64,000 nt of DNA from Tubulanus polymorphus (lineage: Eukaryota; Animalia; Nemertea). The notes under the pieces were generated by a model that saw only the letters and a list, made by a program, of their open reading frames with translations, made no database searches and had not been told where the DNA came from. Positions 8,891 through 64,000 of the stretch are shown here, piece after piece (the first letter of the stretch is position 1; each line of letters opens with the position of its first letter). The stretch covers positions 14,763,653-14,827,652 of the forward strand of contig NC_134028.1 of NCBI RefSeq assembly GCF_964204645.1, given 5' to 3'. The translations under genes were made by a program, and so were the position numbers.

Positions 8891-8895
8891 GAAAT

Positions 8896-13963: not shown

Positions 13964-14027
13964 TTTGTGATTAGAACAAAAAATGTTAAGATAAAATCAA
14001 ATCAACATTTCTTTTTAAGGAGGGGTG

Positions 14028-27868: not shown

Positions 27869-28180
27869 AGTTTTAGTAAAGCTGTAAAGATTGTTAAAAT
27901 CACGGAATAATAACTAATGGGTGACATGGCCGAAAGACCTCTGAACACACTGCAGCAATAGGCCATAGTCAGTTTTACAGCAAGAAATCATCATAGATGC
28001 AATACAATATGATACAATCCTATATATCTATTTCCAATATTTGATTACAAGCAAGTGGAAGAACAGCTTAATTAAGTAGCTGTTTCGAATGTGAAATCAC
28101 ATATTGGTTTCTGAAATCATAAGGATGACATAAATTCCAAAAAAGAGAATTTGGATTGCGCCAAAAGCAACTAGGGAAAT

Positions 28181-34898: not shown

Positions 34899-37420
34899 GT
34901 GTTTGAGAAGAGGGAGAGACGGCGAGTCATTGCTGAGACTGAGAGCCAGGTTTTGCATAATCTTCAACAACATTTGGTTGAAGATTATGCAAAACCTGGT
35001 GAAGATGAAGGCAGGGAAGTGTATGCGGAACCCTGTATCAAACCAGAGTTCGATTTGTCTGATTCTGGGTCGGAGGACTATGTGTCCTTCTTCTCCCTAG
35101 TCTCCTTCAGACTTTGACAGCTTGGATTTGGACCTCAGCTCTTCAAAGAAGCAGAAGAAGGCCCAGAGAAAGGGCTCTTCAAAGAGGCAGAAATCGGTCA
35201 ATTTGTCGCCATCAGATATCGCGGAAGGTTCAGCTTACAAATCTTTTTCCTTGGAGGAAGATGAAGCCTCAGCTGTTCTGAGAGAACTGGCCTCATTTGT
35301 GGAGGCTCCCTTCCAGGATTTTGTAAGTGAAAAAATAATAAAGGAAAAGATCTTGCAGGAGAACCCTGTACCAAAGCATTAGGCCCTGAGAGTAAAAGAG
35401 GCGGACGAAGACATCACTGAGATCCTGGACAGCGCTAAGAAGTTCGTCAACCCTGTCGACAAAGGTCTGAAGAGGATCGCAAAGAGAATCATCTCCAGCA
35501 TGGGACCGCTGTCGAGGGCCTTGAGCCTCTTAGCTGATGAGCCTCTTAACCGATGTCAGGCAGAACCAGGAAGGAGAACTGGATATCTCGTTACTAACGA
35601 CCCTCCTAGAGCAGACCATGATCATGATGGGTCAGGCTCATGTTACAACTACATTTATCCGTCCAAAGAATATATTATCCAAAGTGACGAGAAACCAGAA
35701 GAAGGCGGAATCCCTTCTGAGGAAGTATCGAAAACTCCTGAATAGGGAGAAGAAATTCCTTTTCGGATCGAAATTCATCGAGAAGTTAGCCAAATCCGGC
35801 AAACTAAAGAAATCCATGAGAGACTTGAAGAGGCTGGGATCGGTCACGAAACAGCGGTTTCATGGAGAGCCATCTTCCTGTGGCCAAGGAGGAGGGCGTG
35901 TCAATTCAGGGGACCAGCGAAACAAGCAAACGCTCCCTAGAGGCCAGACCAATTTCCCGAGGAGAGGAAGAGGTGGACAGAATTTTAAGGCAAGGCCTAG
36001 AGGTAAATCCTCCAATTTCTCTATTAAGCTTACAGGAAATAAGTACAAACATTTGGACAGACGCAAGGAACTTGGTTCTGGTTTCACCAGACCTGTCAAA
36101 CTTACTACAAGCAGGACGGATCCAACATTGCCTGGAGAACTGGACAAAGCTTACCAGGGACCCGGACGGTAAAGGGGTACCCTTTGGACTTGTTGGAAAC
36201 CCAAACTCAATGGAGGGCCCCTACAGCCCCGATTTTCTCGGAAACCGAAAATGCGACTCTGGAAAAGGAAATTGAAGCCATGATCTGGAAAGAGGCAGTG
36301 GTGGAAGTGAAGCCTACCCCAGGGACAATTCTTGAGTCATCTGTTTCTGAGACCAAAGAATGATGGTGGCTTTCGCCCAATCTTCAACATGAAGCCCCTC
36401 AACAGATATATAAGGTATCGTCACTTCAAAATGGAAGGCATTCATTGTCTTCAGAGTCTACTGAAACAGGGGGACTTCATGATGAAGATCGATTTTAAAG
36501 ATGCGTATTTTTCTATGCCTATCGCCAGAGATCACGGGAAATTCCTAAGGTTCCTTTGGAAGGGAAAGCTATGGGAATTTACGTGCCTCCCATTCGGGCT
36601 AAGCTCAGGACCTCGTGCCTTCGCCAAACTATTGAAACCGATTGCAGGGTTCTTACAACGGCTAGGGGTGAGATTAATAATATATCTCGACGACATCCTC
36701 ATTCTAAATTCGGACCCGAAACAGTTGATCAAGGACAGGGACACAGTCCTGTGGTTGTTGCAAAAACTAGGGTTCACGATCAATTGGGGGAAGTCGATTC
36801 TCGACCCGTCCCAGACCATGGTCTTTCTGGGTTTTCTGATAAACTCATTGGATATGAGTCTGGCAATCCCGGCGGGAAAGGTGATGGCCATAAGGAGCAG
36901 CTGCAAAGCTCTCCTAGTTTCAGAATCGGTGACGATAAGGGATCTCTGTCGAGTGATAGGAATCCTTCTCTCCACCAGTCGTCGGGCGGTGTTTCCGGCG
37001 CCGTTACAGTGAGGCACCTTCAATTATTGCAAGGGCAGTCACTGAAGGTGACCCTCTCTTTCGAATCGATGGTATCCTTAACTCCGCAGTGTCGGACAGA
37101 GCTGAACTGGTGGATAGACCACTTAGCCCTGGACTTAAAAATAACGACGGATGCATCCCACTTTGGTTGGGGAGCGGTGAGCAAGGGAGTGAGGACAGGA
37201 GGCCCTTGGACGATCGAGGAACAATCCAGGCAATCAATGTGCTCGAATTAAAGGCGGCGGAACTGGCTCTCAGGTCATTCACGAAGGGCAAACATGTCAC
37301 AAACATGTCAATTTTTGTATGGACAACATAACCGCCGTGTCACAAGTGAACAAAATGGGGAATCCCAGGTCAGATGCACTGATTCGGGGGGCAAAGGACC
37401 TGTGGGGGTTCTGCCTAGAC
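34899..37420 (+). mobile_element. DIRS-type retrotransposon fragment (gag-like ORF1, RT, RNase H; tyrosine recombinase missing)
   Basis: Overlapping ORFs. AGRIQHCLENW, RPIFNMKPLN, KIDFKDAYF, LPFGLSSGP, YLDD, TDASHFGWGA, INVLELKAA. Local GC is higher than the flanks. Confidence 0.88.
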
Positions 37421-37545
37421 AATCAACTGATGTTAGATTGATTGGACAAAAAAATATAGCATTCTCTATACAAAATACAAGGACACCCACACATTACGGA
37501 AACTACTGGCTGATGCCACTTATGGTGAACATTCAAGTCATTAAC

Positions 37546-38332
37546 CAGTGTTCTCCATTAGGGGTTTTTAAGGGGCAGCCCGCCCCTTAAATTTTCATGT
37601 CCGCCCCTGTAAAGATCGTCCGCCCCTATGAAAAGATTAGCCGCCTCTGTAGCCGACATAGTTTGAAAATCCATCAGTGATGATCTTTGGTCTTATATCA
37701 CCATAGATAAACGATCATATAGCATTAAACATTATCAGTATGTCAATAATTGTATAAATAATGAGCCAGACAAACGCTTCATGCCATAAAAACTTATTAC
37801 ATACGTCAATAATTGTAGAAACGGCTCACACGCGGCGCCGCTCAGGTCAGGCCTATAAATATCCTGGGATTTCCCGGCATGTTAAAAATAAAAAAAGATT
37901 TGCTGATTTTTAATGAAACAGTGGCCTCAATTTTTCAAGTCTCAATGCCCGTAGAAAAACTTTTATTATGATTACCAAATTTTTTTTCAAACATTAGGTT
38001 ACCAAATGGAAATAAATAAAGGCTTGCTGAGCTTTATTGACAAATCTAGTTATATGAATGGAAGAACATCGTACTATTTTATGCAAGTAGGACTACCAAT
38101 CTCCTTCAGAAAAGTGCTTCAAGCAAACTGCCGATGATCGCTTTCTAGCCAAAGGCTATTAAAATTACCGAATTTAAACTATTTGATTATGACCCCAAAT
38201 GCTGGGAAAACGCATCTGAGCACCTACAAATAGAAAATTTTCCTGGGGGAGAGCCCCCGGGACCCCGTTCCCGATAAGTGCTCGCGCTCGTATGTACCGC
38301 CCCTATGAATTTTTTTACAATGGAGAACACTG
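37546..38332. mobile_element. hAT-like MITE with 6-bp flanking duplication
   Basis: TIR CAGTGTTCTCCATT / AATGGAGAACACTG, flanks ATTAAC on both sides, CGCCCC subterminal repeats. Confidence 0.8.
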
Positions 38333-42502: not shown

Positions 42503-44138
42503 ATTGAAATAGACATTACAAGTCGACCTGATAAATAAATATGTTATATTTCATGTCATCTCAGTTCATCTCGGTAAATTACGTCATCTCGGTAATAAAA
42601 TGAGGCAAACTGCCCAAACAATAGTTAACTTCAATATGATTACAGAACAGTCAGTTTGAGGTAAGTTGATAGTGTTTTAAAGTGTTACGAACCCTTAGTT
42701 AGTTACCTAATCGTTGGTGGTAAGCTTTTTATAATCGGATGGGCTTATACCAACGTTAGGGATGACAAGGACCAAAACACGGTTGAAAAAAGTAACACTT
42801 CAAAAGTATACTTTCTATTCACTTCAGTCCACAATTAATGGCTTAATTCACAAACTAACACTGGTACCTTTCGAAATAATCCAATTTTATGTATGTTTCG
42901 AGTGGTTAATCAACATTATTTTGAGAAATTAATTAATTTCTCCACCAATTTCGCCATTGGCCGCCATTTCTCTGTATTGCACATGTGGCATGATAAGACA
43001 AGGGGACCTACAAGGATTTATATAAAACTTTTAAGACGAAACGACAATTTTTATTTTTGATGGTTTTCCAACTTATATTTCAAATCTTCATGTTTTCCAT
43101 AATAAATAATGAAGTAATAAATTCTGGTAAAAGAAAAATGTGAATAAGTGTTGATTTCTTAATTTTTTTCAATTTCGTCGTTTCGCTTCGTTAGTTTGTG
43201 CTGTTGTCCTGGCCTTAGTCCACAGGTGCCAGCACCTCCAGTAATTTTCAAAATGGCAGCTGTTGACCCGACGGAAATTTACCCTCACTTTACGGCCGAT
43301 TTGCACATGGATTAAGATCGTCAGGTGAGGTGTTATAGGTATCAGACAAACTACGAATCTGTTGTGCGTCGATTACAACAAAAAATAGACGGATATCTTA
43401 GTCTTAAGAGACAATGAAATGCCAGGCAAATTACTCGTCAGTCAAATTGGCTGACGAAGATTTCATACAAAAATGACCTTCCCATTCCTGACTGTGGTTT
43501 GTGAAAATATCCGATTGTGAAACTAAACCACAGACAGGTTACTGACTAACGAACCCTGTGGCTGTGCTGTACGACTCGACTGTACTGACTGTGTACCACT
43601 ACTAACTACTAATATACAAGACTATCGTCCTCCAGGCCTAATTAGCAGCGGTTAACTCAAAGGTACCATGCATGCAGCAGTTGCTTGTTCATATTCGAAA
43701 ATAATGTATCAAATAAACTTAAATGACTACCTTATTGACTTTGAAAATGTCTTCTATATGTTAAATTCTGATGATTTTGCGGCATATCGAGAATTACTTC
43801 AATTGATTTAAATTTAATTTATTGAGCGGTTCCGATACTTAGATAGACTGGTCGCCTGTCCAATTCAATTCAATATAATAAAATATGTGACACAGATCTG
43901 GATCTTAAAAGGTTTACAAGGTATATTCGTTATGCGCCAAGTGGGAATATCGTGCCAAGTAAGAATTATCGGCGGAAGTGCATGCCAGAGTAAGAATCAA
44001 AATGCAAACAACATCCTATACTGAAACGTTGGCAATAGTAGGAGGCGCCACGGATACTTGCGCCAAGTTGGAATAACTTTTTCGACAAGTTTCGACTCAG
44101 CGATTTAACAGTTTTTTTTTCAGTTTTCAACATACAAT

Positions 44139-47100
44139 ATGATGTTCTTAGGTTCTACTGCTTGGGCATTTTCTAAGAGGCCTTCAAAATACACTCGTGG
44201 TCTTGCTAATTATGGGCAGTCTTGTTATATGAACAGCGTTATTCAATCGGTTAAGTGTGTAGCAGAACATTTCAAACTGTTCTCTAAAAAGTCCGCAGAA
44301 AGCCAGAATTCAATGGAGCTTTTCAATAGATGTCGTAAGTATATATAAACAGTCAGGAACACTTTCCAAAAACGGCTTATTCTGCCAATTTCGGCGTTTT
44401 CCGCCAATTACGGCAGAATCAGCCGTTTATGGATCACTCAGTTTTGAAACTTTCACAGTCGTTTATGGCTTAATCAGCCAGTTTCAGCTCACTAAGTTTC
44501 GAGTTTTGCTTTAAAGTTTTTTGCGCACTTCCGGTTCAATTAGCGCATGTTGCCGATGACGTCATAATCTCGAGCAGACGATAAGCTTTCATATGACGCT
44601 AGGATGGAAATTTTTGAGCTAGGTAAAGTGGTCAAATTTACGTTTTTCTAAATGATTACGTCATATGAAGCCCAAAAACTCCGGGAAAACTCTCAAAACT
44701 ACTACAGCATGAAACAAGTTTATTAATCATGATTTTTGTTAAAAATAAATTTGGGAACTAGTTTTAAAAACTATTATAAAGTTTTCAAGTAAACGTTGCC
44801 ATGGGTACACATAAAAACATTCGCCATTTCTGGCGTATTCCGCCGTTTTTGGCGTAGTTAGTTTTATAATCATAAACTATTAAGCCATTATTGGCAGTCC
44901 CCTTGTTATATATGAGGATTCCCCCACCCACTTAGACGTTTCCCCTAGTGTCTACGCGGTACTTTTTTCGGAATAAAATAATTAATTTGCTGAGGTGAAC
45001 GGATGTGTAAATATTATATGTTAAAAATAAAAATAAAATTAGTATTATTATAATTATCATTCTCATAAGACAAATCAATCATGGATGTATAAACTAGTGT
45101 ATCAAAAATCTAGTTTTAAGTTTTGCCCACGGTCTTATCTTGCCTAATAAAGCATAGAATGGTTGAGGGATATATTGGACTGCATATGATGTTGGTTAAT
45201 TGAAGGTAATTAACATCTTCGATGCCTCCAAGCTAATTGATGGATTCTTGTGATGGATAATGATTGAATGAATTGGTGGCCGATGACGTTACAACTCAAA
45301 ATCGATACAGCTGTATCTAGACTCATTTCAAAATACAACAAACATTTTCGAAACAATTTGGGATACATGTATGTATATATTTATTTCATAGAATACAGGT
45401 ATACAGAAAGAACAGAATTCAAATACATTTGCCATCGGAAACCCATACATTTATATTTAATTCTTTCTTGAAGCCTGGAACGGATCAATGAGATTAATTT
45501 TTCGGCGCAAATATACAAATGTATGCCAGCAGAAAAGCGATGATGTCATAATAGGGACTCCCATCGAACTAAGCATTATAAATAGCACCTGTAAAACTAT
45601 CTAAGCTAAAAACGCCGTTCCTGGCGATGTAGTTTTAAAAACTGTAACAGCTGAAAACGGCGGAAATGGCGTTTTTTAAGAACAAGCCAAAAATGGCAGA
45701 AAACGCCGATTTCGGCTAAATTGGCAGAAGCAGTTTAAAACTGAGTAATCCATAAATGGCTGATTCTGCCGTTATTGGCGGAAAACGCCGAAATTGGCAG
45801 AATAAGCCGTTTTTGGAAAGTGTTCCTGACTGATAAAGCCCATTTTGAAGGCTTTAAAGAATGGAAGTGGATATTTTGCCAATAATGCAGCATTATTTTA
45901 GTAAACCAAGTGGCTATTCGTACAGACACGTACGAATAATTCCGTAGGCTATTCGTACGCGCCCGTATGAATAATTCCGTAGGCTATTCGTACGCACCCG
46001 TACGGATTACTGTGGAATTATTCGTACGGTCAGGCTAGTCAAAACATTCGGCTGACTGTCAGTGAGCTCAGTGGTCTAGTGGTATGATGCTGTGCTGTTT
46101 ATTTACTGGCCCAGGTTCGAGTCTCGCTTGATCCACTCTATTGTTCTCTAACTATATTCTCCACACTTTCCTTGAATGGCGGGCGTTTATCGGCCAATCA
46201 GCGACAGTTATTAGCGTACAGATCCTTCACCCAGCACTGGCAGTAGTTGTCTCCACCAGTGATCTCCGTCGCTCTACGATCCTAGTGTAACCAATCCTGT
46301 GGTACATCAGACACTAAGATTCTTGGTGAAACAGATCCTAGTTCCGTATGAATAGCCTCCAGAGTAATCCGTACGGGTCCGTACGAGTAGCCACAGCGAT
46401 ATGCTATTTTGCCAATGCCCAATGGCTATGAAATGTAACAATAAAATCGCGCCGGTTAGGGCAAAATATTGGCTGCGTTTCTTATTATTAGACTATGTCA
46501 TTTTTCCAATGACTTGTTTTGATTGCCTAATTGATGCTGCGCAAATGCAAAACTTTGAAAATTCAAGAAAATTTGAACAGATTTAGAGAAAATAGAGCGG
46601 GATTCGAACCCGGACCAGTGTATATATCCTCTAAATATAAATATAAAATACGTTCTTGCAATCTGGCTGTAAGTTTTCAATTCATATAGCATTCAACGTA
46701 TCGTATCTCAACCCTACCCTAACCCTTTCATCTCTCTAAGTGTAAAACGGACCCTTAAACTAACCCTAACTCCCTGGGCCCGGTTTTACATACAGGGATT
46801 AAGCCTCTAATTTGGGTTAGTTGCCCAATTCGAATAAAAATTTTTAGGTTAATTTTCGATGCCCATTTCAAAAATGCAAATTAAGATATTTATCATATAT
46901 CACCTACACATTTTTAGATTTAGGGCCTATTGAAAATCTCATTGGAGAAAGAATTGCAAAGAAAATACGGAACGATCAATTATACAATTTCATTGTACAA
47001 CCAAAAAATCCTACGATATTTATGAATGAAACCTTGTTCATGTTATAGGACTAATGCATTATGGGCAACTAATTCAGAATTATCTGAGATAATTTGAATT

Positions 47101-50100
47101 GGTTAATTTTTCGCTAATTTGTGTTAGTGAAACAGATTTAATCATCAAATGATCTATGCCTAATTCGAAGAATTTTTTATTATCACCTTCGAATTCGAAG
47201 TTAACTGGCGTTCGTGAAACGACCACCGGTATTCAGACTAACTATAGATACCATATAGCCTATGCTATTATGATATATCTAACTGAAATATTTATCATCA
47301 TCTATATATATTATTTTAAGTATCGCTACTTTTCAGCTGCACCAAAATATACGGCCCCGTGACTTGACTTGGATGTCATTTGGGGCAGAGCCCTGTGAAT
47401 ATCAATGCCTGAGGAATAGCCTAATGCATATCGGTACAATTTTAGTCAAGTTACCTAGGCATATTTTTACCACAATTGCAAAATTGTCACCACTTTGCAA
47501 AATTGTAGCTCATGATGAGTTCTATGATTGGATATATAGGCCTAATCATCATCAAATTTCGGTGAGGAGCCATAATTTGACTTTATGCTTAGCCCATATA
47601 AAGGATGGGTACCGGTATATATGTTATCCTATGTGTATGACAACCTCCCTCTCCTGACTTGACGCGATGGAACTGAGCGCAGGAATACCAGCCAATTAGA
47701 GACCGAATGATCATAGTACAAATTTTGATTGCTACATTAGTGTCATTTGTATCATGTCACAAATATTTACCGGTAATTTCAAGTAGTTTCAAACGCAAAC
47801 CAAACGTCCAGCATTGCAGTTGACTGGACTAAAGATCTAGAAACGAAATTGGTAGAATTACGTAGTGAGCGGCCATCTTTATATGATGTCGCTTACACAT
47901 TGTATTCAAAACAGAATCAGAAAGATAAAAGTCTTAACGAAACTGCTTTTCAACTGGAAATATATTTCGCAATTCAAAATAATTTAAATCTATCCTCAAA
48001 ATGCTCATGACCATGTGATCCAGTGCAGTTGCCAGTAATCGGAACCGGACAAAAGCAGGGAAGCAACTGGGAGGATCTCATATCCCGCTAATCAGCCTCA
48101 AGCCAGCCTTAAGGGTGGGATGATAGTTAATTTGTCTAATCGTCTCACAGCCAAGCATTCCTATTGTTCATAGAATTGACACATAACATCTTTGATTTAG
48201 AGGTAAAGCAGGATAATTTCACCCAGACACTGGAGGATCTGTGTCTAGTTCTGCGAAGTACATCAGCAAATATTAGTCATGTAGTGAATCCTAGTGCCAT
48301 GAAATGTCTTTTGCCTAGTAAGTATTTACTTTGATCAAAATTTCTCATTATACTGCAATTTTTAGTCATTTGAAATAAAATATCTCTAATTCATGAACTA
48401 GATTAGTTGTGTAATTTGAGAATTAAAGTGTTTTTGACCTAATGTTTATATTTCAATTTCCTTTTCCTGACAGAATAATGGCAAAATGGTTGGTATATTA
48501 TATAATCTTCCTATTTGTTTTTCATCAATTTTCTTTGCTTCACATTGTCTATGTAAATACTCTACACATATAGGCTTCATCTCAGGGTATTAAGTATTAA
48601 GTAATCCACATGATTATGTCTCATTACAATGCAAATGCTTTTTAACCCACTTGGGACTTAAATCCTAGCGGGCCTAATTTGTTCACTTTTCATTCATTGT
48701 TTGTAGACAGGCCCCAGTAATTTGTGGAAAATTGAACTGTAATTGATGCTTCAATGGTTTGTTTTGATATTAGGTTAATAGCTACTTTAGATGCATCTGG
48801 AGCCAAAAACTGGCCTGATCAAATTCCAGATGGCTGGCTGGGAAATCTTGAATATGCTTCAATGAAGTTCCTTGATATTTTGACAAAAAAAGGTCACTTG
48901 TGCCCTGAATTCTGAGACCTGTAGCTTCCTAATGGTAGTGATTATGGTTTGCCATTATAATGTGTTGAAATTCGTGCTGGGTGAGTTTCAAGGTACATAA
49001 TTCGTTTCTGAGTATGATCACCAGGCGAATAACGGAATAATGTGGTATTTGATTATTTTCAGATTGTCAAGCATTTCGCCAGTAGGCGTGGTGTCCTAGT
49101 TGTGTGGTTGCACCAAAAGTCTTTTTTCACCTTATTGCAGCGATTTAGGAAAACATTTTATGTGCCTATCTCAGGAAAAGTGATCAGATGGGCTTATACT
49201 AGGAATAGCCTGTATCAAACACTTTTGATATGATATTTAATTATAGTATGATTTCTTGCCAAACCAATGACAGTCACATAGGCGTTATTTTCTTGGAAAT
49301 TCCATAGGTATCCCCTAATTTTGAGTAGGGTCTTAAATGACTAGAGCCTCATTGCCACTTGCTTCTGTATCTGAAGACTTTGAGGTGACCACAATGACCA
49401 GTGCAAATTGAATATTTCACTCCTATTTCATCTGTTTTCTGTTTTATATATGTTGCCTCGCTTCATGACTTTTATGCTATTCATGTATGTTATACACTAC
49501 TATGATCAAAATATGTAGGTGATGTCTCGAGGAATGAGACACTTGCCTATCTGTTCTATAATGAAGAGCTGGATGGTTTGGTGTTCATACACAACCGTGG
49601 TGAACTGGAAAAAATGTGGTTTTGCTTCTTTCTCACTTCTTTCTTCAACTTTCCTTTACTGAACCAAACTGATTTTCACCCCATTTTATCTTAGATATAG
49701 GGCTCTACTCAAGACGTCAGTGTGATGCCCATGAGTTCTTCATTCGTTGGATGAGTAGAATTGAAGATGAAAATTCAAGGTAAACAAAATGAATGAAGCA
49801 ACGAGCGAATGAACGAATGCAATTATGTTTATAGTTATCAAAAAATTGAGGCTAGATAGATGATGAATATAATGTGTGTTTATTTTTTCAGTTCTGATTT
49901 TAAACAGATTGTTAAGTTTTTCCATGGTTCTCTTCAAACAAAAGGTATTTTAAGTAGCAAAGCTTTTCAAGCAATGATTCATTCATTTTTACTACACTTA
50001 ATTTTCACATCAGTAAGCCCTGTTTGAATATTTTATGACTTTCTCTTTCAGTCATCTGTAGATCCTGTTCTACTGAATCAACACAAACTGATGGATTCAC

Positions 50101-51376
50101 AAACCTCAGTCTATCACTTGGGGTGTGTAGCTGTGTTTTTGGTCCCTTAAACCGCTGAATATTTCTATATGTTTCCTATAAATAGTTCCTATATGACATT
50201 AGAGATTTTCTTTGTATTTCAGAAGGATAAAGGAAAAGGAGTCACAACCCTTGTCTCGTTACTTAATTCATATTTTTGTAGTGAGGAACTGGATGACTAT
50301 GAGTGTTCCCAGTGAGTTTGTTATGTTTATTTCATGTAGTGATCATAAGTACTGATTCCATATTTATAGGTATTATCTTTTAGCTATGATTTCATTTCCA
50401 TCGTTTTTCATTGAAGTTGCAAATTAAAGGTTGCAAGGAAATCTACTAAACCTTTGAAGGCTCCTGAATGTTTAGCTATTCAAATTAACAGGTAAATACT
50501 TAATCTGTCAATTTGCTTAAACTGCTTTTGTGTAACTGAAAACACATTTTTTGAGGCACCCTGTAGAATGGTATTTTACGCATGGCATACGGTATGAACA
50601 GTATCTCTAGAATTAATTGGTGGAGTTATAACTAATAGACTGTCTTGTCCTTTTAAGATTCAGTAAGACATTGGAAAAAAGAAATGATTTTGTGAGATTT
50701 GATGAAGTTCTTAGCTTCCACAACGAGGTATGCTCATTTACTGAAGATATTCTAGTTTTTTAGGAATACTGCACATAAATAACACTGTCACATATTTTTC
50801 AGAATTTTAAACTTTGCAGTGTTGCGGTTCATCAAGGCTCTTCTTTGGAAGGAGGACATTATATATCTTTTGTTTGCGATATTGATGGTAAATGGTTTGA
50901 AACAAATGACAGTAAGGTACTGTAAATCCATTGATCATTTGCAACCAGGAATATTTTATCATTTATTGATTATTCATCAGACACCTGGCAGCTATGTCTT
51001 GAACATGAGTCAGATAACTAAGGCGAATCACCATTCTGACGCAGCACCTAATTCTTTAATCTGGTTCATGCCCATTCTGTCACATTATATAACAAAAACC
51101 AATGCAAAATGTGCAATTACAGGCAAAAGTGACTCAAAAGTTTTATTATCATAAAATAATCGCTGCGGACAAACCCTTTGGAACCACAGGAGCTCTATAT
51201 GAAAAACAAGCATACATCCTGTATATTTTTGTCATAATATCAAATGAGGACAGAGAAGTTAGTTCCGTTCATTTGCACAATATAACGTAACTTAATCTTT
51301 ATTTTAGGTATTGAGAGCCAATAAGGATTGGGTCCTATCCCAGAATGCTTACATGCTATTTTATATAAAAGTACCA
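44139..51376 (+). CDS. Ubiquitin-specific protease (peptidase C19) domain, 10 exons
   Basis: Exons 44139/44152-44334, 48201-48317, 49695-49779, 49892-49944, 50052-50122, 50223-50311, 50417-50491, 50658-50727, 50803-50916 and 51308-51376 join in phase with no stop. Motifs: GLANYGQSCYMNSVIQ, QCDAHEFF, FHGSL..CRSC, YECSHC, PECLAIQINRF, VHQG..GGHYISF...WFETNDSKV, AYMLFY. Confidence 0.88.
44350..45832. mobile_element. Non-autonomous TIR element with ~100-bp TIRs in the first USP intron
   Basis: CAGTCAGGAACACTTTCCAAAAACGGC... and its reverse complement, with 5-bp flanking ATAAA. Confidence 0.88.
45910..46394. mobile_element. MITE with subterminal TATTCGTACG repeats containing a tRNA-like segment
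   Basis: GTGGCTATTCGTAC ... GTACGAGTAGCCAC. A-box-like TGGTCTAGTGG and B-box-like GGTTCGAGTC lie within 46064-46134. Confidence 0.55.
47670..48110 (+). mobile_element. Second, partial copy of the MADF-remnant Harbinger derivative
   Basis: Colinear similarity to 15800-16230 (AAGATCTAGAAACGAA, CAGAATCAGAAAGATAAAA, CAAAAGCAGGGAAGCAACTGGG). Confidence 0.75.
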
Positions 51377-51427
51377 GTATGTGTTCTTTCTTATTTTGTC
51401 ATATAATATTCAACTTTATGTAGTTAA

Positions 51428-51636
51428 CCCTTAACTTGCTGCAGGCTACTGAGTCGACACACTGGGCCTCTTAAGACATGGCAAGTGCCTATACTCGTGA
51501 ATCCGAACCCGGAAGTGATTTCACTTTTCGCGCTGGGCCCCCCAAAAATGACCCCACCCAGTGTACCCCCTCTTTCAAAAATCGGAAGTTTAATTTCATC
51601 AACATGCAAATGATCTTGCTGCCAGAAGGTTAAGGG
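51428..51636. mobile_element. piggyBac-type MITE
   Basis: TTAA|CCCTTAAC ... GTTAAGGG|TTAA. Confidence 0.75.
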
Positions 51637-51675
51637 TTAAACTCGCCAGTAATGCACGATACAACGGTAATTAGG

Positions 51676-52077
51676 ATTTAGGATGCAATATATATTTTTA
51701 ATGAGTCTAAATATTATTTTTCAGACAAGGACAACGGCAGATAATTCACACCAACCCGATCCTCAGGTATGTGAAACATTTTACACGTTGATTTTTCTAA
51801 AAATGTGTCATAACTTGGAATTTAGGATGCAATATATATTTGTAATGAGTCTAAATATTATTTTTCAGACAAGGACTACAGCAGATAATTCACACCAACC
51901 CGATCTTGAGGTATGCGAAACATTTTACACGTTGATTTTTCTAAAAATGTGTCATAACTTGGAATTTAGGATGCAATATATATTTGTAATGAGTCTAAAT
52001 ATTATTTTTCAGACAAGGACTACAGCAGATAATTCACACCAACCCGATCCTCAGGTATGTGAAACATTTTACACGTC
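51676..52077 (+). repeat. Tandem 144-bp intron+exon repeat (3 micro-exons TRTTADNSHQPD(P/L)(Q/E))
   Basis: 42-bp phase-0 exons at 51725-66, 51869-910 and 52013-54, each flanked by TTTCAG and GTATG. Confidence 0.85.
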
Positions 52078-54950
52078 GCCCAGCCGCCCCTGTATGTGTT
52101 TATGAGTTGTAGGTTTAGATGTTGTATTTCGGGTGTCGGAAAATGGTCGGTTTCATGTGGAGATCAGTGTGACTTGTTTGAATCTTGAATCTTGCAATGG
52201 AGTCTGATCATTTTCACACCTTTAGATTATTGTATCGCTATGAAATTGTATGTGATGGCTAAGGATTAGAATGTTATTACCGGGTACGTATATTTCTAAT
52301 TATTCCATCCATCTGGGGCCCAGTTTCACAAAAAGGATTAAAGCCAAAATCGATCAAAAAAAGATAAACTGAATTAATGAAGAAATTAAATCAATTTAAG
52401 AGTTAAAACTTTTTGTGGAACTTGGCGGCCCATTTTACTCTACTTTATTAGTGCGAGGATGTAGTGTATCATGCTAAATTTCAGAAGGCTAGGCCTACTT
52501 GTATCCAGTCATGTGCAATATGTACATAGGATTATTAAACTAAGATGAATGTATAGTTCTCTACTCATTTATGAATTGTATTCTTTTTTATTCGCATATT
52601 TTATTTGTAAAATTGTAAAATGAACAAGTTAACTATGAAATAATAATCGATATATGTTAAGTTTATAATTCTTCTCGTTTTCACTGTCAGGAGAGGAGGA
52701 AGCCAATGCCTAACGAGAGAAATCCCAGAATAGAATCAGCCCAAAATGAAAAGTTCTATAGCAAAGTGGTATATATTTTGAGCAACATATATGCTAAATA
52801 CTATTAGCCATCATCAGATTATACCGATGTATATAGAATTTTACTCAAGAACTTAACATTTTTGGCTGAATCTATTGTGAGATTTCTCTCATTATTCATA
52901 TTGTTTATCTTTCAAGACTAAGTCTCTTTTGATTTGCTTATTTTATGTGTGAGACCATAGTAAGTGAGGGCAAGTCAAAGAGGCTGGTTGCAGTAGTGAT
53001 GTGCTGGAGGCATTTGGAATGACACTACACCTCCGAGGACCAGAGAAGTAGGAGCCGGTGTTTGGATGACTGATCTCGTATCGTGTCAAGGACCCTGACT
53101 TGATTGAGTACCTGGCAGACACTCGTCCTGATTGGTCAAGTGACTTCATTTAGATAATGTAGTCACCTGGGAAAGATTTCGCACTCATCTCGGACACTAG
53201 TTTACCCCTTTTAGACCTTTTATTCCTGGAGTCGGCCATTATTCATTCATCAACCTTCAGAGGATGACATTTTCCCTTTTCACTACCACTCCCCGGGACT
53301 GTTTGACGATGGCGGACCCTTGTAGATAGCCACGCCCTGACGAAGAAGCCTTTAGATTCTGGCGCATAGGATTTCGTTGATATTTTGGACATGCTACATT
53401 GGCTTCACTGGCACCATAGGGACAATCACTATATGTGCGTACATATAGATATGTCAGTGGCTGATCCAGGGGTTTGCGCAGAGGGCACGTGCACCCCCCT
53501 AAAGACATTGCTCTTTTTTTAGAGTCTGACCTTTTCGTGAGAAAGAAGAAAGAGCATGTGAAAAATCCCTGAAAATGTGTTGGCCTAAGCATTGTTGTCA
53601 TTTACCGATGCTTTTATCTGCAGTCCTCTAGTTCATGGAGTTTCATCGATGTTCATTGCTCCATTTGGTTGAATGACTGGACTGGTTCCAGACGTACTCT
53701 GATTGCGCACCTAGTTTTTAAAGATTATAGCCCTTGATTTTTTTCCTCTTACACTCGCTCGTGTGCATCCATATTGAACTCACTTGTGTGCATCCATATT
53801 TGAATGTAGTTTATAGTTTTGTCAACCCTCTACATTTTATATTTGATAGGCCTCAAACAGTCGCACTAAAGCTTCTGTGTCACGTGATCACATGCCAGAT
53901 GATGATAAGTATGTTTTGAGAAATGACGTTTCCACTGAGACATGCTCATTAGAAAACTAGAATTTCATCCCATGTTAATGATAGATTTTCAGATTCAAAT
54001 CCTATAGATCATTCAGAGAAAGCACATGACTCTGCTAAGAAAGCATCATCTAAGTAAGTCTATCTATGAAACTTATTATATTCTAAAAGGTTTTTCAGGA
54101 AAAATTTCAACAGGTCTTGATAGTCTTAATGTTTAATAATTGACTGCATTATCGTAGGATACATCTCCTTGCTCGGAATTGTGGTCTTTTGTTCTCTCCC
54201 CACCACGGATAGTTTGATATTAAATTTAATATTTTCCCTTTATATTGGTACGTATGCATATTTTGTTAACCCAATCAATTGCACATTGGTAGCCCATGAT
54301 ATGGTATGGTTATGTTGAGTTAGAAGGCGATGGCTTCTGCTATATGTTAACCATGGAATATTATGGTATATATGCTCAATTGATTGGCACTATGGCATTT
54401 AAAAGTCAGTGTCATCTATTGCTGTATTTGTTCATCAGGGGGTGTTGAATATTGAAATTTTGGCTGTCAAATATTTTTCGAAGTTGTCAGTTTAACTAGT
54501 TTAACCAAGAAAACTTTATTGATTAAAAAAAGAGCACAATTGGTACAAAATATTATTCAATGCCCACAAATGCTGGTGGTTAAACCTAAGATTCGCTTTA
54601 TGGTTTAGTTTGTTTTAGGATACAAAATTGTTCATTTTATTACGTAAGATACTTGAGACTAAAAGCTGGCCAATTTATTCGCTACAATAAATTTTCATTC
54701 ATTTTATAACAGAATTACAGATGATGTGAAAAGATCTGATGTGAAAAAAAGAGGTAAGCTAAGATAGCATGGGTTATTCAGATACATTCTCACCTTTGTT
54801 TTATAAAATACCTTTGTTTTATAAAATCAGAAATGATTTCCTGGTGGGAATGAATCTTTTTCCTTACTGCTAGGCCACAAATTAAAATGATTGGTTTCAT
54901 AAGGCATTAGGCCTATGTATGAATGTGAATAGAGGTGTTTCATTTTTTAG

Positions 54951-57505
54951 CCAAAAATAGCTCAGTTATGGATAAAGAATATCTGGATGTTGTCAAACAG
55001 TTTCTTGAAAACCCAATGCATCCAGATGTTAAGAATTATTTTCCCAACAGCCAAAGCTTAGCCAAATTCCGACATCAGGTAAATGTTCTCGTTGTGAATG
55101 CTTGACGTCTTGTATCACTACAATTTTCTCATAATAGAACTGATTTATGAAGTGATGCTTCGTCTTATTTTGCAGGTCAAAACCAAAGGTTTTACTTTAT
55201 AAGAGGAGGAAAACGGTGATAAGAATGTAGTTGCACCATGCAAAAGTGATGTACGTATCTTACATGGAAAATATCATTTTATTGCAGTATGTACAGAAGT
55301 TATTCATTTGCTCCAAATGGGTTGTTTCAGGTTTCAAGGAAACTCAGAGTTATCCCTTTGGAAGATTTTGATCAAATCATATTATCCTGTCACGAGGCTA
55401 TTGGGCATGGTGGAGAGAATGCTACATTTAAAAAGGTAAAATTATTCCCTGAGGTTTTAGTTAATCATATCTTTAATCACTTATTCAAAAGATCAACTTT
55501 CAGGTTCAAGAAAACTACTTCGGTGTCATTCGAATTCATGTAAGGAATACCTTGAAAAAATGCAAAGTGTGCACACTGAAATCATCGCAAACTGGCAGAG
55601 CCCCAGTCATTCCGATCATTAGCCAAAATGTATTCGAAAGAATTCAGGTAAGACATAACTTTTATTTAAGGTCTGAGTACTATTATCGTTAATTCATACA
55701 TGTATATTCATTTCAGGTTGACTTGATTGATATGCAACGTCAAGAAACAGAAGGTTATCGCTTCATATTGCATGCTATTGACCATGCCTCCAAATTTCAT
55801 TTTCTGTGGCCCTTGAAGGGGAAATTTGCGACTGATGTGAAAGATGCTCTCAGGATCCTATTCAGTTTTACTGGGCTGCCCAAAATTCTTCAATGTGATA
55901 ATGGAGGTGAATTTTCTGACCAGGAACTGGGTGATCTTCTGTCTGAATGGCCCTCCAGCTGTAAAATTGTCCATGGTAGACCTCGTCATCCCCAGAGCCA
56001 GGGCTTAGTAGAACGGGGTCATCGTATCGTGGCTGATAAAATTGCCTCATTCAAAGCGTCTTTCACTGCAAAAGGAGAATTTCCATGGCATCATTATTTA
56101 CCACGAATTATGTGTAAGTAAAATTGAACACGATATCTTGATTAATTCATAATATGCTTCCCCTATATGCTCAATGTTTTTTGCTTCTTTAGATATGATC
56201 AACACTACGTATTCCACACGAATAAAATGTACCCCCTATGAATGTGTGTATGGGCAAAAACCCCCAAATATTGCACTTCAGGTAAAATTTGTAGTTACTT
56301 CAGCAAATGGTATTTATATCATTATTCAGTCCTTATAAGAAATTGTATTTGATTATAGTCAAATGAACATAATGACGAAGAGGAGGGCAATGCAGAAGTA
56401 TGTACTAATACTCACTAAAATCTATTTTAGGGCAGGGCTGTAGGAACCGGGGAGCCATGCCCCCCCCCCCCATTTTCTGACTCTTGCCTATGACTTCCTA
56501 CATGCCTAGGGTAGGTCTCCATAGTACCTACGTAGTGGCAGAAATGGTGAAACTGTGAGCTTATATCATTCCTAATTTCAACCAGGAAGTACTCAGAATG
56601 TACCTAAATGATATAATTTTTCAAAATTTTATGACCATTTAGTGCTTTGTGCCTGCTACGCCGTCATTATGGGCCACAATTCGTTCCTATGGCCCTGTAG
56701 GGTGTAGTAAGAAATTAAGTTTCAAATACAGTAGTATCACAAAGTCAAAATACCTTTCAAAATTAATCAACATCTTGTAAACAGAGCCAGGCTGTAGATA
56801 TTATCTTAATGCATGTTTTTTTTATAATACTTAACAAGTATCAGTAATCCATATTCTTTTTCATAGGCCATAACAATTCAGAGTGATGAAGATATTACGG
56901 TGTGTACATGCTTGATTGATTATCTTGTGTATATATTCGATTTAATTTTAAATACAAATATGTCTATCTCGTCTCCTGCAGAATAAGGCTCATTGAAATC
57001 TTGTCCTGAGAAAAGATAACTGCCAACTTGCATTTTATAAAGGGATACTTACAGTATTTCATTAATGTAAACTTTGTGGCATTTCTAAGAGATGTATATT
57101 TAAAAAATTAACAATTTTTCAAGTGTCAGAAAATCGACATTTATTGCAAGTGCAGTGTTTACCAATTTTCATATCTGTATATCACTCAACTTTTTTCAGA
57201 TGGAACCAAATGCCTCAACCACTTCGCAAGTAAGCCTTTTTAACAATGCACAAAACTTGTCACTTTGCTATAACCTAAACTCTACTTACTACATTTGGCC
57301 TTATTTTAAGCTGGCTAACCAATGCACCACTTCCATTCTAGGGATTTGATTTTAGTGAGCTGCCAATAAAGAGAGTTAAGGTTGCTAATGAGCTAGCAAC
57401 TAAGGAAGCTCACCAAAAAATTAGGATGGCTGCTAACCTTGCCTCCTTAAACGGCGCAAAAAGGATGTTGAAAAGGGGATACAAAGAACAACTAATATTC
57501 AAAGT
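54951..57505 (+). pseudogene. Ginger2/TDD-type (SCAND3/KRBA2-like) integrase: H2C2 zinc-binding domain plus rve core, spliced
   Basis: CHEAIGHGG...KKCKVC; FERIQVDLIDM, AIDHASKF, LPKILQCDNGGEF, IVHGRPRHPQSQGLVER, TPYECVYG. In-frame TAA at 55200-02. The expected similarity appears to stop after LIFKV (~57505). Confidence 0.85.
56433..56697. mobile_element. hAT-like MITE with 5-bp duplication
   Basis: CAGGGCTGTAGGAAC / GTTCCTATGGCCCTG, flanks TAGGG on both sides. Confidence 0.75.
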
Positions 57506-59812
57506 TCGAATTATGGTGGGAAAAGTCTACATCTTCCCCCAAAAATGACTGTCATGTGTCTTGATTTGGAATGTTCTTAATTTTTGCCATATCATTCACC
57601 TTGTGGAGGCATATTTTTGACCCAAACAAATGTGTAGATAATTATTGGTCCAGCACCTTAAACTTTCCTTTAACATTTACAAATTTAGAAAAATTGTGCT
57701 TGCCATATAAAATTCACCAAATTGATGCAGCCAATGTACTTTATGACGAGTATCGAAACGCTGTATCATTTTGATGTTTCTAATGAATGTTAGGACCAAT
57801 TGAACGCCTAAACTTGCGGTTTTTAAATACGTAATCTAATTTAGAATGCCGCAATATCTATTGATTCTTTATCAACGCGCAATGGATCCTATCTTAATCA
57901 ATCCAATTGCGCTCCTTAAAGACAGGCTTACTAGCTGGGCCTGAATATTTAAATTTCCTCTATCTAGCTTATGTAACTGTTATTGAACAATCCTTCAAAC
58001 ATGGATAAAGCCTTATGTAAAATTTTAATCATTGCAATTAGTGTAGAAAGACTGTGACACCGGGCCTAATCATTACACCGACACACACTTATACTACAGA
58101 ATATATAGCCCACATTCGATAATGACAATGGTTTTCTATGATATGGGTGCTTCTTTCAGGACCCCATAGCGATCTGACTTCAAATTTGAATTTTGTTTTA
58201 GTTGTGATTTTGTTATGGATTTATCGATCATTCAACTCTAGCCAAAGTGATGTGATATGTATTAGTTGGCATAGGCAGGGTTGGTATGTTTGCCTCAGTT
58301 TAACACATACATGTATTTTGAATTCAATAGGGAGTACACTATAGCGTAGTTAGTCCCATGAATTACTATATATGATCATTATCAATTTCAAAAATTATAA
58401 TTTTGCGTGTATCTTTATTCATAAAGGTACATATCTCCTTGTTCATTCTTGTCACAAACTGAAGATAGTGTACGTTTTATTTGAGTGAGCATCGATTTGA
58501 TAGTGTTTGTTGATGTTTTTGCAACAATTTGATTCTGAGCAGCTGAGCACTAGAGTAGGCCTATTGTCTCGGTCGTGCCAGAAAATTTGAAAAAAAAATA
58601 CAAGCGCTCAGATAATCTGCAGCAGATACGTTTTTTCGGTGATCCAACTGTTCCCCAGGCCTAGTTGCAGTAACACATGCCAGTATATAAACTTACCACA
58701 CGATTGAATATGATATAATAGGAAGTCTGAAAAATGATTGGTTCGGCGTTAAGGTTCGGCGCATATTCGCTCGAAAACGCGTAACCATAGAAGTTCAATC
58801 AAATTATTCTGTTAGTAGATAGAAAAATATGATTATCTCCTATTTTTGATTGTCATATCGTCCGCATACAAAGCCGTCACTTCAAGAAATAGAAATATTG
58901 CAACTCCGATAACGAGGAAGGCCTATATGATTTTGAAATGAAATCGCCGTTTTCCAAAAGAAATCAAAGTCAAACTGAAAGCAGTTGAATTTAGGAGCCA
59001 TCTCATTTTACATGAAGAATACCGAATCTGGGAGGATGATTGTAGGCCTACGAACCGCATTGTTAGAAATCACCTTATGATATCCAATCAATTTTTGAAA
59101 ATTGCTTTAGGTGACGAACAAAATTTCCCTAATATTAAACATTTCATGAAAAAACTTTATACAAGACCGAGACAAATCATTAGTTGGTGGCGTAGGGGAA
59201 ATTGAAACTTCCAAAAATTCAGCTCATCAAAATACCATGACAAAAAAAATCAAGTTGCGAGCGCGAATGTTTAACATTTATACGGAATTTTGAATTATGA
59301 ATGAAGCATTTGGGGATGTTAGGCCTAATTCTGTTCGTAAATCCTTGAACAGCGCATTTCTACAGCGTAACGATCTATTTTACCAGAAAGTAAGCGGTTG
59401 GCTATAAGTCACAATTTATCATCAAAACATGGAATTATAAAATATTCCTAATTTTTGATGGGTCCCGCAACTATATATATGATGTCTTGATATTTTGGGA
59501 AAAAGATGTGCATAATCGAAAAGCAGGCGGTAGCCATATCAGAACTCAAAAGACAACTTGTTAATTTTCATATTAAGATTGCTTTTTCTTTTTTAAGCAA
59601 GGAATTAGTCTTTCTCTAAAGCTTATTTTTTCAGAAAAAAAGTATATAGTTGCGGCTTGCCTAATCTGGGCAGGCAAATATTCTGATATCATCTAAAATT
59701 CTAGCAAAGAAACGGATATGATATCAGATGATATCTATGAATTCATTTTCTATACAATTCTTATAGAAGAAATGGGAAGAAGGGGGGGAGAAAAGAAAGA
59801 GGAAAGAGGAAA

Positions 59813-59859
59813 GATTTTAGCGGGCTACCGGCGCTTCGCGCCGGTAGCCCGCTAAAATC
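59813..59859. repeat. Perfect 22-bp-stem hairpin
   Basis: GATTTTAGCGGGCTACCGGCGC-TTC-GCGCCGGTAGCCCGCTAAAATC. Confidence 0.9.
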
Positions 59860-61509
59860 ATCGTTTCGCCAAAGCGATTTTAAATTTAGAGTAGTGCGCA
59901 TATATTCTCAGATGGCACGATTCCTATTCGGCACGCAACATATTTCTAAAAGGAAATATACTGCGACAGGTGGTTTTGCAAAGTCATTAAAAATCAAGAT
60001 CAAAAGCGTCTAAGGGTACAATTATTCCGATTTTGGAGAGAGAAGTCATAAAGAATGAATAAATTAATGAAGATTAAAAAATCGGAAGTGATAAACGAAC
60101 AGTTTAAAAGCGAAAGCACCCGTCGCGATAAAATGAAGATTTAAATAAATTACAAAATCATTATGAAAAACGAAACGAAAAGAAACAAATGCTACCGTTG
60201 ATAGTATTCACGTACAAATTGTAGAATGAGAATAGAAAATTTAATTGAATACAAGTCACGAGAAGAGCAAAGAGATTTAGACAATCAATCCGGGGCTTGA
60301 AATAAAGAAACTGCTTAAAATGAATAAACTCGAATGCAAGATCTTTGCTTTCGAATAATTTGTTAATTACAAGGTAGACCTAAGGTTCATATAAATCTAT
60401 ATTTTTGAATTTTGAAATCAGGGGATTTAAAAATAGTATTCATCATTAGCGGGACGTCGATTCAGCAATTAATTTTTCAGGGAAGAGCCGATCAGCCTTG
60501 AAAGGGAATGCGTGAGTGTCGCAAAAAAATTATCTCATTGCTAATCAATGTTGAATAATAAGATGTACGTTGTTTTCTGAATACTAAAAGATTCTTAATT
60601 TTATTTGTGTTCTGTCTACTTAATTGCGGAAATCCGATGTATTTGCAGTACTGGGAACAATAAAGTATTGAATAAAGTAACAATTAAGTATAGATGATGA
60701 GTATCAATAAATTATATTCGAACTTGAATTTGAGCCCACATGGGACGAACTCTTTTATCAGATCGGAGAATCCGTTTGCCTCCAATCGTACTCTTTTATT
60801 GGTCACGTGACTTTTTGGAGTCTCCGAAACCTCCTTTCTGTCGAGGTGGTGTGATTCGGATTTTGTGTGGAGCCAACCGGAGATTTCGGACGGAGACTTT
60901 GGAGGTCATAAAAGAGTATGCCCTACGTAGGTGGTGGTATTGGAAGACACCAGGTGGTTCGATCGACTTAATATGCTCCAGCGCCGTGGCGCTGTCGCAA
61001 AAACATCGAAACTATTAAAATTTATTCAAAACCTCGAATTTTTTGGTTTTAAGCGATAAACCATTTTCAAGATTGACTAAAAGTATGGCATTACCATTAT
61101 GAGAATGCCGGTTTGCTAGCGTATCTATTTAACACCCGTATTGCTCGGGTTAGTTTTACTACCAACGGGTGGCGCTGTATGTAAATTTCACATAAATCAA
61201 CGACTTTCGGCTATTAGCGGTAGGCCTACTTAAGACCACTTGAAAACATCATAGTCAATTACGTAGTGAAAGTAAAAAGTTACAGTTCCGTGTACAGCAC
61301 CATAGCACCCATATAATACCACATACATTTTATTCAGACTAAGGACTATTAGTTAACACCGATCTTCATTTCCATTAATTAATGGTCTGTTGAATTAATT
61401 AGTAATCCAGTCTTTCGGTGTTCGAGATAAAATGCCCGCAAAATAAGAACTAACGAACCAGAGCTGACCACAAATTGCCCAACAGATATTTTTCTGGAAA
61501 CGACACAAT

Positions 61510-61960
61510 CATGTTTAGTATCAAATAACTCGTGGCGTGGACCTTGGTCTATTAACTGACCAATGCATGACCAGTACTGGCTATATAGTAAATTATCTGT
61601 TTTGCAAACAATTAAGTTGTTTGGTGTCAAATAACTAGATATGATGTGGACATTAAACTAAAAATTGTTTAACTGACCAATGCTTGACCAGTACTGACCA
61701 GTTACCACCAACTAGAACCCACCATATGTAATTTATATGTTTAGTAAAGCAATAAAATCGTGTTTGGGCGTCGAGCTATTAGATACGGTGCGGGCTATGA
61801 TCTAACAACTATTTAACTGACCAATTTTTGACCAATACTGACCTTAAAGTAATTTGTCTATTCTAGAAGCAAAGTCGTGTTTGGTGTCAAATAATGAGAA
61901 ATGGTGTAGGCTTTCATCTAACAACTATTCAACTGACCAAATCTTGACCAATACTGACCC
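61510..61960. repeat. Diverged tandem repeat (~110-140 bp, 4 units)
   Basis: Recurring (G)TGTTTGGTGTCAAATAA...AACTGACCAA..TGACCA(A/G)TACTG. Confidence 0.7.
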
Positions 61961-63550
61961 ATGCCGAACTTTCTCGTGAATCCATTGTTGCGCATGACAG
62001 CCATCGTCGCATTGTTGGAGCTCGCGCGCTATTGAGTTTTGTGTTAGTGATTTGATTTAAACGGCAGTTAATCTTACATAATGTTTTATTGTAAAAAGTT
62101 GAATATTAATAAATTTACTCTAGAATAATGTGATTCTCGTGATGTAAAAATCATTTACCAACTGTAGATAAAGGTTTTTCCAAATTCACTGTAAAAATTG
62201 ATCAGTAAAGTCAATTGTTTTTCCCATTACGGGCATGCGTTGAACAGCGTCTTAGCATGTTTGACCGTTAATTAATGGAGCAAAAATGCATTTTATACAA
62301 AAGTTGACTATACAGCCGTTAAATTCAGATCTCAACGGTCACAACGATGTAAGAAGAATTCAGATAGTCGCGGGTTAGCTTTTTCCAATTTAGAGGCAAA
62401 AACCGGCATTTCTGTAAAAATCAGACAAACTTCAAGGTTTTAACTGCGCAATCAAAATCGCAGAATCAAAGAATAATATCATAGAATTTGACGAAATATT
62501 TAACGTAAACTTCCATATTCGTGAAAGACGATCACGCAATGCTGTTTGCCACAGAAATCCACCAACCCTTCCCATTTAATCATAAAAAATCCCTTCTGGA
62601 ATCAGGTCCTGTCTGTCCCTCGGAATATATTTCTCAGCTCAATTGACTTTTCAACCGTCGGTTTTCGGTCCGCATTGAAATCTCGTCAATCTTTGGTCGC
62701 TCCACTTCGCTACCGCTCCGCTCCGCGACCAATTGATTTATTTACAATACACAAATTCATATAATCAAATATATTTTAATAATTATTATTATTCTATTAT
62801 TCAACTGAAATACACACGGTTATGAAAATATATTATAGTTTTAAATTACTTTTAATATTTGTTCTTAATGAACTCGACCATTCAACCTTTAACCTGAAAG
62901 CCCATTACCCCTATTACTCTTAAAATAATCATACGTATACATGAATAACATTTAAATTGACAGATTATTCAATATAAAAGTATATATTTACAACATTATT
63001 TCAATATTCATATTTGTGCGAGTTAGATTTTTAAACATTAAAAGTGTTAGTAAAGTACCTAGCACGATTTCAGCGTTTTTCGGGAATTCCCTGAAATTTC
63101 GGCGTTTTTCGGAAATTCCCTGAAATTTCAGCGTTTTTTTTTCAGCGTTTCAGTGTTTCAGCTTTTTCAGCGAAGTTCAGGAACCGCTCAGGTGACAGGT
63201 CGATTCGCTAAAGTGAAAATCTTGCTGACTGAACCGATGAGAGATAGCCGATTCGAACAGAACGTAGCGCTTTCGGAACATTTTATTTAAAACAAAAAAA
63301 TACCTACGCTGTTTTTATGAATTTATATTTATGTTTACATAGAAATATACAGAAATTAGATCAGATGTCTTGAAATATGATAGTGACTTACTTGTTTACA
63401 ATCATTTAAGGTAAGAATTTGTGATAATTTATTTTTTACATTATTGGAAGCAAAAACAATCGGTTTGATTGTGACTTATTTCAAAAACAAAAAACAATTT
63501 AATACAAGAATTTTTGATACCGGGTGGATAATTTTTTACAATAATGAAGC

Positions 63551-63714
63551 ATGAATATATACAGGAGAATGCTTTTTACACTATTAAAACATTAAAATAT
63601 ACAGGAGAATGCTTTTTACAACATTAAAACATGAACATATACAGGAGAATGCTATGAACAATATTAAAACATGAGAATATACAGGAGAATGCTATTTACA
63701 ATATTAAAACATGA
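63551..63714. repeat. Minisatellite (~41 bp, 4 units)
   Basis: ATATACAGGAGAATGCT...ATTAAAACAT repeated. Confidence 0.85.
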
Positions 63715-64000
63715 AACTTACTTTCTAATTTGACTTACTTGTTTACTATTGAAACCGGTAAAAACCGGAGGATAATGAATTCGATTCATTAATGTAAGTT
63801 TCTTATGATAACTTTTTTATACGGTTAAAAGCATGTATTTGTGTATTTGTTACAAAAAACCATCGTTAAAGAATTTCTTCATTAGGTGTAGTACGATGGC
63901 GTACTTTTTCGTCTCAGTACGACGACCTAAATTGTCACTTTCTTGGTATGAGACATTTCGATATCTCATCACTAATGTGTTCACAATCTCCTACTTGATT

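Follow-up and report, generated by a model that had tools for sequence, protein, structure and literature searches.

A predicted USP-integrase gene

The window examined here, the whole 64,000-nucleotide stretch from contig NC_134028.1 of the ribbon worm Tubulanus polymorphus (positions 14,763,653 to 14,827,652, forward strand), carries an intron-rich gene in which a predicted ubiquitin-specific protease (USP, peptidase family C19) precedes an integrase with an H2C2 zinc finger and a DDE catalytic core. Our gene model comprises 26 exons on the + strand (44139-57506, 813 codons) that join in one frame with one stop. We regard the locus, with fair confidence, as a dead copy of an element that is young, multi-copy and likely a cut-and-paste transposon of the Ginger2/Tdd type, and whose single gene would specify the USP, a polar linker of about 100 residues and the integrase in one frame. 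The parts of the gene are these:

44139..44334, + strand: exon 1, coding part, with the USP Cys box (N24 at 44208, catalytic C29 at 44223)
48201..48317, + strand: exon 2, USP thumb helices, placed by phase and colinearity with USP homologues
49695-49779, 49892-49944, 50052-50122, 50223-50311, 50417-50491, 50658-50727, 50803-50916, 51308-51376, + strand: exons 3-10, matching RefSeq model P0112 exactly
51725..52054, + strand: exons 11-13, three 42-nt phase-0 exons in a 144-bp tandem triplication
52055..52105, + strand: read-through into intron 13, ending at TGA 52103-52105; RefSeq models from three loci end their USP-only product here
52711..52894, no strand: hairpin of 186 bp, probably intronic, overlapping an exon proposed earlier (52691-52768)
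53850-53908, 53985-54053, 54713-54753, + strand: linker exons 14-16, from the spliced model and RefSeq copies
near 54157-54212, + strand: alternative short terminal exon, which ends model P0209
54951-55078, 55176-55250, 55331-55435, 55504-55647, 55717-56113, 56193-56281, + strand: integrase exons 17-22, with H2C2 finger and DDE core
56359-56397, 56867-56899, 57200-57229, 57342-57506, + strand: exons 23-26; similarity to model P0108 stops at 57506

Spliced at GT-AG sites, exons 1-10 (44139-51376) keep phase, meet no stop and encode a complete USP domain, just as an earlier note on this DNA had proposed, with all catalytic motifs in place: the Cys box lies in exon 1, while exons 3-10 carry QCDAHEF, two CxxC motifs, the His box GGHY (H271 at 50857), N287/D288 and AYMLFY. 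The Pfam comparison suggested in that note matched UCH to exon 1 (E = 1.3e-5; profile positions 1-39 on the Cys box, with an alignment to USP8) and to exon 9 (3.6e-8), and rve to the large downstream exon (1.4e-8); over the region of exons 3-10 the UCH match reached 1e-23, far above a weak match to Peptidase_C98 (0.006). For P0112, which spans only exons 3-13 and lacks the Cys box, structure prediction from a 59-sequence alignment gave a mean pLDDT of 83.5 and a fingers-palm-thumb fold with a zinc ribbon, against a pLDDT of only 32 from the single sequence. The leading Foldseek matches were all USPs (USP36, USP15, Ubp8, USP2/21, USP18 and USP30; E from 6e-18 to 2e-15, rmsd about 2-3 Å over some 190 columns). 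Cys box (N24, C29), His box (H271, N287, D288) and fold are those of a USP of peptidase family C19, here a compact one of 290 residues with an intact triad, for which deubiquitinase activity is predicted.

Motifs and fold are thus shared with the compact USPs named above, yet sequence identity is low. Among the best 150 matches from 1.84 billion cluster representatives, with the T. polymorphus copies set aside, no close relative was found; the 114 full-domain relatives (of 149 matches) on which our tree was based are only 23-33% identical to this USP, its terminal branch is 1.69 long against a median of 0.53, and the tree supports no host USP subfamily for it. With no subfamily assignable, the top structural match, to Ubp8 on the nucleosome, which scores no better than those to other USPs, is no evidence for histone specificity.

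The joins between exons 1 and 2 and between exons 2 and 3 are supported by phase and by colinearity with USP homologues, and by no RefSeq model. Compact USPs align colinearly with the direct 1-2-3 join and need no extra gaps, so that the exon-like scraps of introns 1 and 2 are not needed; none of these has a Pfam match except for a weak MADF match in a repeat at 47661-48100. Several such open-frame scraps lie in intron 2 (48474-49620) and might be alternative 5' exons, which would explain why RefSeq models begin in exon 3. A strong acceptor at 44124, immediately 5' of the coding part of exon 1, suggests an additional upstream exon.

Between the two catalytic halves the earlier note had read one junction, 52768 to 53993, as out of phase. 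The difficulty disappears with an exon that it had missed (53850-53908) and an acceptor 8 nt upstream of the one it had chosen (53985), both used exactly in RefSeq copies P0001, P0107 and P0209; the linker exons keep phase (0-2, 2-2, 2-1). Its exon at 52691-52768 we dropped as probably intronic, given the hairpin in which it lies and its skipping by P0209, and the omission leaves the frame unchanged because that exon is phase 0-0. Read straight through, the 144-bp repeat unit (an intron and a 42-nt exon) is open, forming a 144-codon frame at 51671-52102, so retention of both repeat-unit introns would be harmless to the frame; isoform P0111 carries a fourth copy of the repeat exon.

Splice junctions were compared with ten T. 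polymorphus RefSeq models, using an 11-residue window and allowing at most two mismatches. Of the 25 junctions in our gene model, 23 occur in one or more of these RefSeq models, with the qualification that matches at the repeat exons do not distinguish individual repeats. Model P0209 joins three repeat exons straight to 53850 and 53985, and thereby the USP tail to the integrase leader; P0001 and P0107 continue the same two exons into the integrase. Together, the RefSeq models tile the fusion from exon 3 to its end.

The integrase lies on the same strand and is of Ginger2 type, as the earlier note had held. Its H2C2 finger is formed by H500, H505, C534 and C537 and its DDE core by D564, D623 and E661, with 37 residues between the second D and the E; a pattern search of the full-length paralogue P0108 found neither YPYY nor GPY/F. 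An H2C2 finger with D-D(37)-E and neither of these motifs is the Ginger2 pattern (PMC2836005), and the YPYY, GPY/F and C-terminal OTU or Ulp1 of Ginger1 are absent. In a tree of 111 integrase cores, which included no named Ginger2 reference, the protein belongs to a small clade of otherwise unnamed sequences, itself placed among KRBA2/SCAND3-like proteins; a nimavirus "integrase-like protein" (P0052) also falls among the KRBA2-like integrases of that tree. RefSeq labels the T. polymorphus integrase copies SCAND3-like or KRBA2-like, and integrases of this type were tied to Ginger2 by Llorens et al. 2012 (PMC3575427). No reverse transcriptase (RT) or RNase H is linked to the gene, the nearest RT frame (36311-37009, 7 kb upstream) belonging to a separate element. 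No long open reading frame (ORF) occurs in 57506-64000, where three ORFs of 90-94 aa were left unscanned.

Dispersed copies and a damaged window copy

A RefSeq protein of T. polymorphus matches the integrase exon at 98% identity, and both halves of the gene recur elsewhere in this genome. There are five integrase models, each on a contig of its own: P0001 (15.6 kb), P0107 (21.6 Mb), P0108 (24.87 Mb), P0109 (13.98 Mb) and P0002 (32.06 Mb); the first four are 98% identical to the integrase exons of the window. Models of the USP part occupy four contigs: P0112 (27.38 Mb), P0110/P0111 (24.87 Mb; 98% identical to the USP part of the window), P0116 (13.98 Mb) and P0209 (32.06 Mb). Because P0112 is identical in all 248 of its 248 residues to window exons 3-13 plus the read-through into intron 13, it very likely represents this very locus. 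In all, models of the two halves are found on six contigs, with 95-100% identity over gap-free stretches, a dispersal of near-identical copies such as is expected of Ginger2/Tdd. The three other USP-part loci are all on contigs that also hold an integrase model (24.87, 13.98 and 32.06 Mb), for which chance would account with a probability of about 0.02-0.03 in a genome of 313-358 Mb (PMC8468679); two of the five integrase contigs, those of P0107 and P0001, yielded no USP-part model. Short terminal exons in models P0107, P0108 and P0209 fall within window introns 13, 16 and 15, respectively, so intron DNA is common to the copies across the linker.

The copy in the window is damaged. The earlier note had overlooked a TAA in frame at 55200-55202 (+), which is codon 463 of the model and lies upstream of the zinc finger; all five RefSeq integrase models have Lys at this position, the stop being specific to the window copy. 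Nor is 57505, where that note ended the gene, a natural terminus: paralogue P0108 runs about 155 residues further, and for these, including a Cys-rich tail, the window contains no credible match. Owing to the TAA and the missing 3' end, this copy cannot make the fusion and is, by its sequence, dead. The fusion gene envisaged in the earlier note thus stands as regards in-frame linkage, which phase and RefSeq junctions support, and falls as regards a product of this copy. Several insertions and one candidate terminus accompany it:

44350-45832, no strand: element with terminal inverted repeats (TIRs), in intron 1; 102-bp arms, 96%
45910-46394, no strand: small inverted-repeat element in intron 1
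47661-48100, no strand: insertion in intron 1, an 80% copy of 15791-16226
43886..44067, + strand: candidate left end, unproven; TGTGACAC, then four G(C/T)GCCA(A/C)G motifs at 43934, 43952, 44045 and 44060

The candidate left end has no inverted partner anywhere in the window, and the right end of the element is not within it. Described Ginger2/Tdd elements have TIRs of 50-180 bp that start TGTNR, and a 4-bp target-site duplication (TSD) in an AT-rich RTATAY target (PMC2836005). Among 22 related loci longer than 4 kb, four have TGT...ACA inverted ends around the integrase match, with identical 4-base flanks in three of them (distant relatives L012, L016 and L055).

A short frame at 46900-47045, without a Pfam match, has a motif that resembles the C-terminal end of a Tc1-type transposase. 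Other mobile sequences are spread over the window. A Gypsy-type long terminal repeat element (8595-14270; repeats 95-98% identical) has a SCAN-like gag match, several stops, and integrase frames that precede its RT frame. A THAP domain and a DDE_Tnp_4 transposase lie on the minus strand at 17465-21052, with another ORF on the plus strand. At 28178-29635 is a decayed GIY-YIG and RT element between 30-bp inverted repeats, and at 35100-37590 a GC-richer RT element with overlapping frames, presumably DIRS-like.

Known protease-bearing elements and competing explanations

The affinities of the gene are divided among several described systems. With Ginger2/Tdd it shares the H2C2 and DDE motifs without YPYY or GPY/F, a low copy number, and relatives with TGT...ACA ends (PMC2836005). 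It departs from them in its length of more than 13 kb, its 26 exons and its N-terminal USP, whereas described Ginger2 elements measure 2.7-6.7 kb and the available text of the same source reports no protease domain for them. Ginger1 likewise combines an integrase-type transposase with a ubiquitin or SUMO protease, and has introns; its protease is an OTU or Ulp1 domain at the C-terminus, it may also bear a PHD domain, and its integrase has YPYY and GPY/F, in contrast to the N-terminal USP/C19 and Ginger2-type core found here (PMC2836005). A Trichomonas protein, XP_001314237.1 (transposase_11 plus peptidase C19), also places a USP/C19 domain on a DNA transposase, although it is a protist sequence of another transposase family (pfam01609) with a single mention in the text available (PMC2836005). 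Helitron VTD deubiquitinases lie within a transposition polyprotein as well, but they belong to another protease class and to a rolling-circle element; Erven et al. 2022 found them active and proposed that they block proteasomal loss of transposition proteins (PMC9741609). A review of giant transposons, in its accessible text, names only OTU on Helentrons (PMC6431247). In the literature searched no Ginger element was described with a USP, the one precedent being the C19 domain of the Trichomonas protein; the search did not extend to Repbase or to most subscription journals. The USP on a Ginger2 integrase is, then, a new domain layout among protease-carrying transposons already known (Ginger1 with OTU or Ulp1, Helitron with VTD).

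An OTU domain occurs in three of 106 related integrases, at the N-terminus of P0100 (a 672-aa Ginger2-like integrase) and at the C-terminus of P0098 and P0106. Conversely, one of 160 USP-hit sequences contains an integrase. This sequence, P0187, is a 1737-aa Pol of Gypsy type in which protease, RT, RNase H, USP, H2C2 and rve follow one another in that order; its USP is complete (UCH 2e-58, Cys and His boxes intact) and stands, as in the window, ahead of the integrase. Since it is not sister to the window USP, we read the shared layout as convergence; the literature search found nothing on a USP-bearing Gypsy Pol of this kind.

A number of observations weigh against our reading of the locus. 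No single RefSeq model includes both catalytic domains, and the bridging model P0209 itself breaks off after exon 15, in an alternative short exon. An RNA basis for the RefSeq models is deduced from isoform names only (X1/X2, and two accessions for P0116), and reads from copies that are 98% identical could have been mis-assigned in them. Exon 1 matched no protein record in a protein search, and the three RefSeq models extending to exon 3 each begin at a Met within it; the Cys box may therefore be absent from the expressed message, and the USP-only RefSeq products are all without it. The association of USP and integrase in the other copies is one of contig rather than position, and the same contig is not the same locus. 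No TIR pair or TSD was found for the element, comparison of 36-44 kb with 57-64 kb giving chance-level matches only, and the gene has 25 introns as opposed to the 0-4 of Ginger1 (PMC2836005). The layout is known so far from T. polymorphus alone: UCH was detected in none of the 106 related integrases (precomputed Pfam) and none of 30 rescanned, and 96 related loci likewise yielded no USP (best E 0.77), a weak negative given that most are short contigs, and one whose positive control was partly circular, as the profile included the window's own USP.

A rather unlikely alternative is one in which a single mobile element makes two separate products, the USP being only ever free, the integrase starting on its own (for instance at the exon 17 Met), and the splice from exon 13 to exon 14 being a minor dead end. 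The early end of P0209 and the lack of a full-length fusion model in RefSeq fit this account, as do P0002 and P0109, which begin at that Met. Transcripts ending between USP and integrase, the outcome that the earlier note had set against a fusion, are in part represented, with USP-only models ending in intron 13 at three loci (P0112, P0110/P0111 and P0116); P0209, however, splices across the boundary. From exon 3 to exon 26, moreover, a single frame runs through all the junctions, every one of which occurs in some model, and that three small linker exons keep phase would be difficult to account for had there been no selection for read-through.

Less probable still is a chimeric host gene comparable to KRBA2 or SCAND3, in which a USP gene captured a Ginger2 integrase and was passively multiplied by segmental duplication or within another mobile element. 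Mammals offer precedents for a host domain joined to a Ginger2 integrase (PMC3575427), and the missing TIR and TSD and the very many introns would be expected of such a gene; at least six dispersed copies with 98% identity, a window copy broken and riddled with insertions, and the long USP branch with no host orthologue argue otherwise. The view that a normal host USP gene has an unrelated Ginger2 insertion close by on its downstream side, as the RefSeq annotation of a stand-alone 248-residue USP gene here might imply and as the earlier note had allowed for, is largely refuted and very improbable, because the USP is not a single-copy orthologue (both halves are multi-copy, identity to the 114 full-domain matches is as low as given above, the other USP loci share contigs with integrases) and because in another copy a splice connects it with the integrase leader.

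Predicted products and their significance

We accordingly retain the reading of a multi-copy, Ginger2-type element. Sequence evidence supports a USP placed N-terminal to a Ginger2/KRBA2-type integrase and linked to it in frame, and intact copies are likely to encode one enzyme with both DNA-moving and ubiquitin-stripping activities, as predicted from their domains. The gene probably yields a short USP-only product as well as the full fusion. The unit would be moved by its own integrase, and its transcript would fork after the last repeat exon, exon 13: reading on into intron 13 would give the free USP, while splicing from 52054 to 53850, and then from 54053 to 54713, would give a fusion of about 970 residues. 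Regulated splicing of transposase genes is familiar from the P element.

The tethered USP may deubiquitinate the transposase or proteins at the insertion site, and so lengthen the life of the transposition complex, by analogy with what has been proposed for Helitron VTD and for the OTU and Ulp1 domains of Ginger1; it could thereby shield transposase or target site from ubiquitin-driven turnover or silencing. An active role for transposon-borne proteases was proposed by Bao et al. 2010 (PMC2836005). Self-stabilisation and histone deubiquitination, as put forward in the earlier note, would be possible roles of this kind, an idea already published for deubiquitinases of other transposons. We offer only tentatively the further idea of an active giant Ginger2 transposon in which a regulated splice at the end of the repeat exons switches between a free deubiquitinase, blunting ubiquitin-based host silencing in trans, and a transposing USP-integrase fusion, the independent occurrence of the same layout in the Gypsy Pol P0187 then suggesting that integrases repeatedly recruit a USP at that position.

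The principle is not new, as deubiquitinases borne by transposons have already been published. What the locus adds is a third class of protease, after OTU and Ulp1, and a new, N-terminal position for it in integrase-type DNA transposons, and it extends protease carriage to the Ginger2 branch, the source of mammalian SCAND3 and KRBA2. The triad-intact USP, together with near-identical sister copies that lack the TAA, makes the proposed contest between transposons and the ubiquitin system directly testable.

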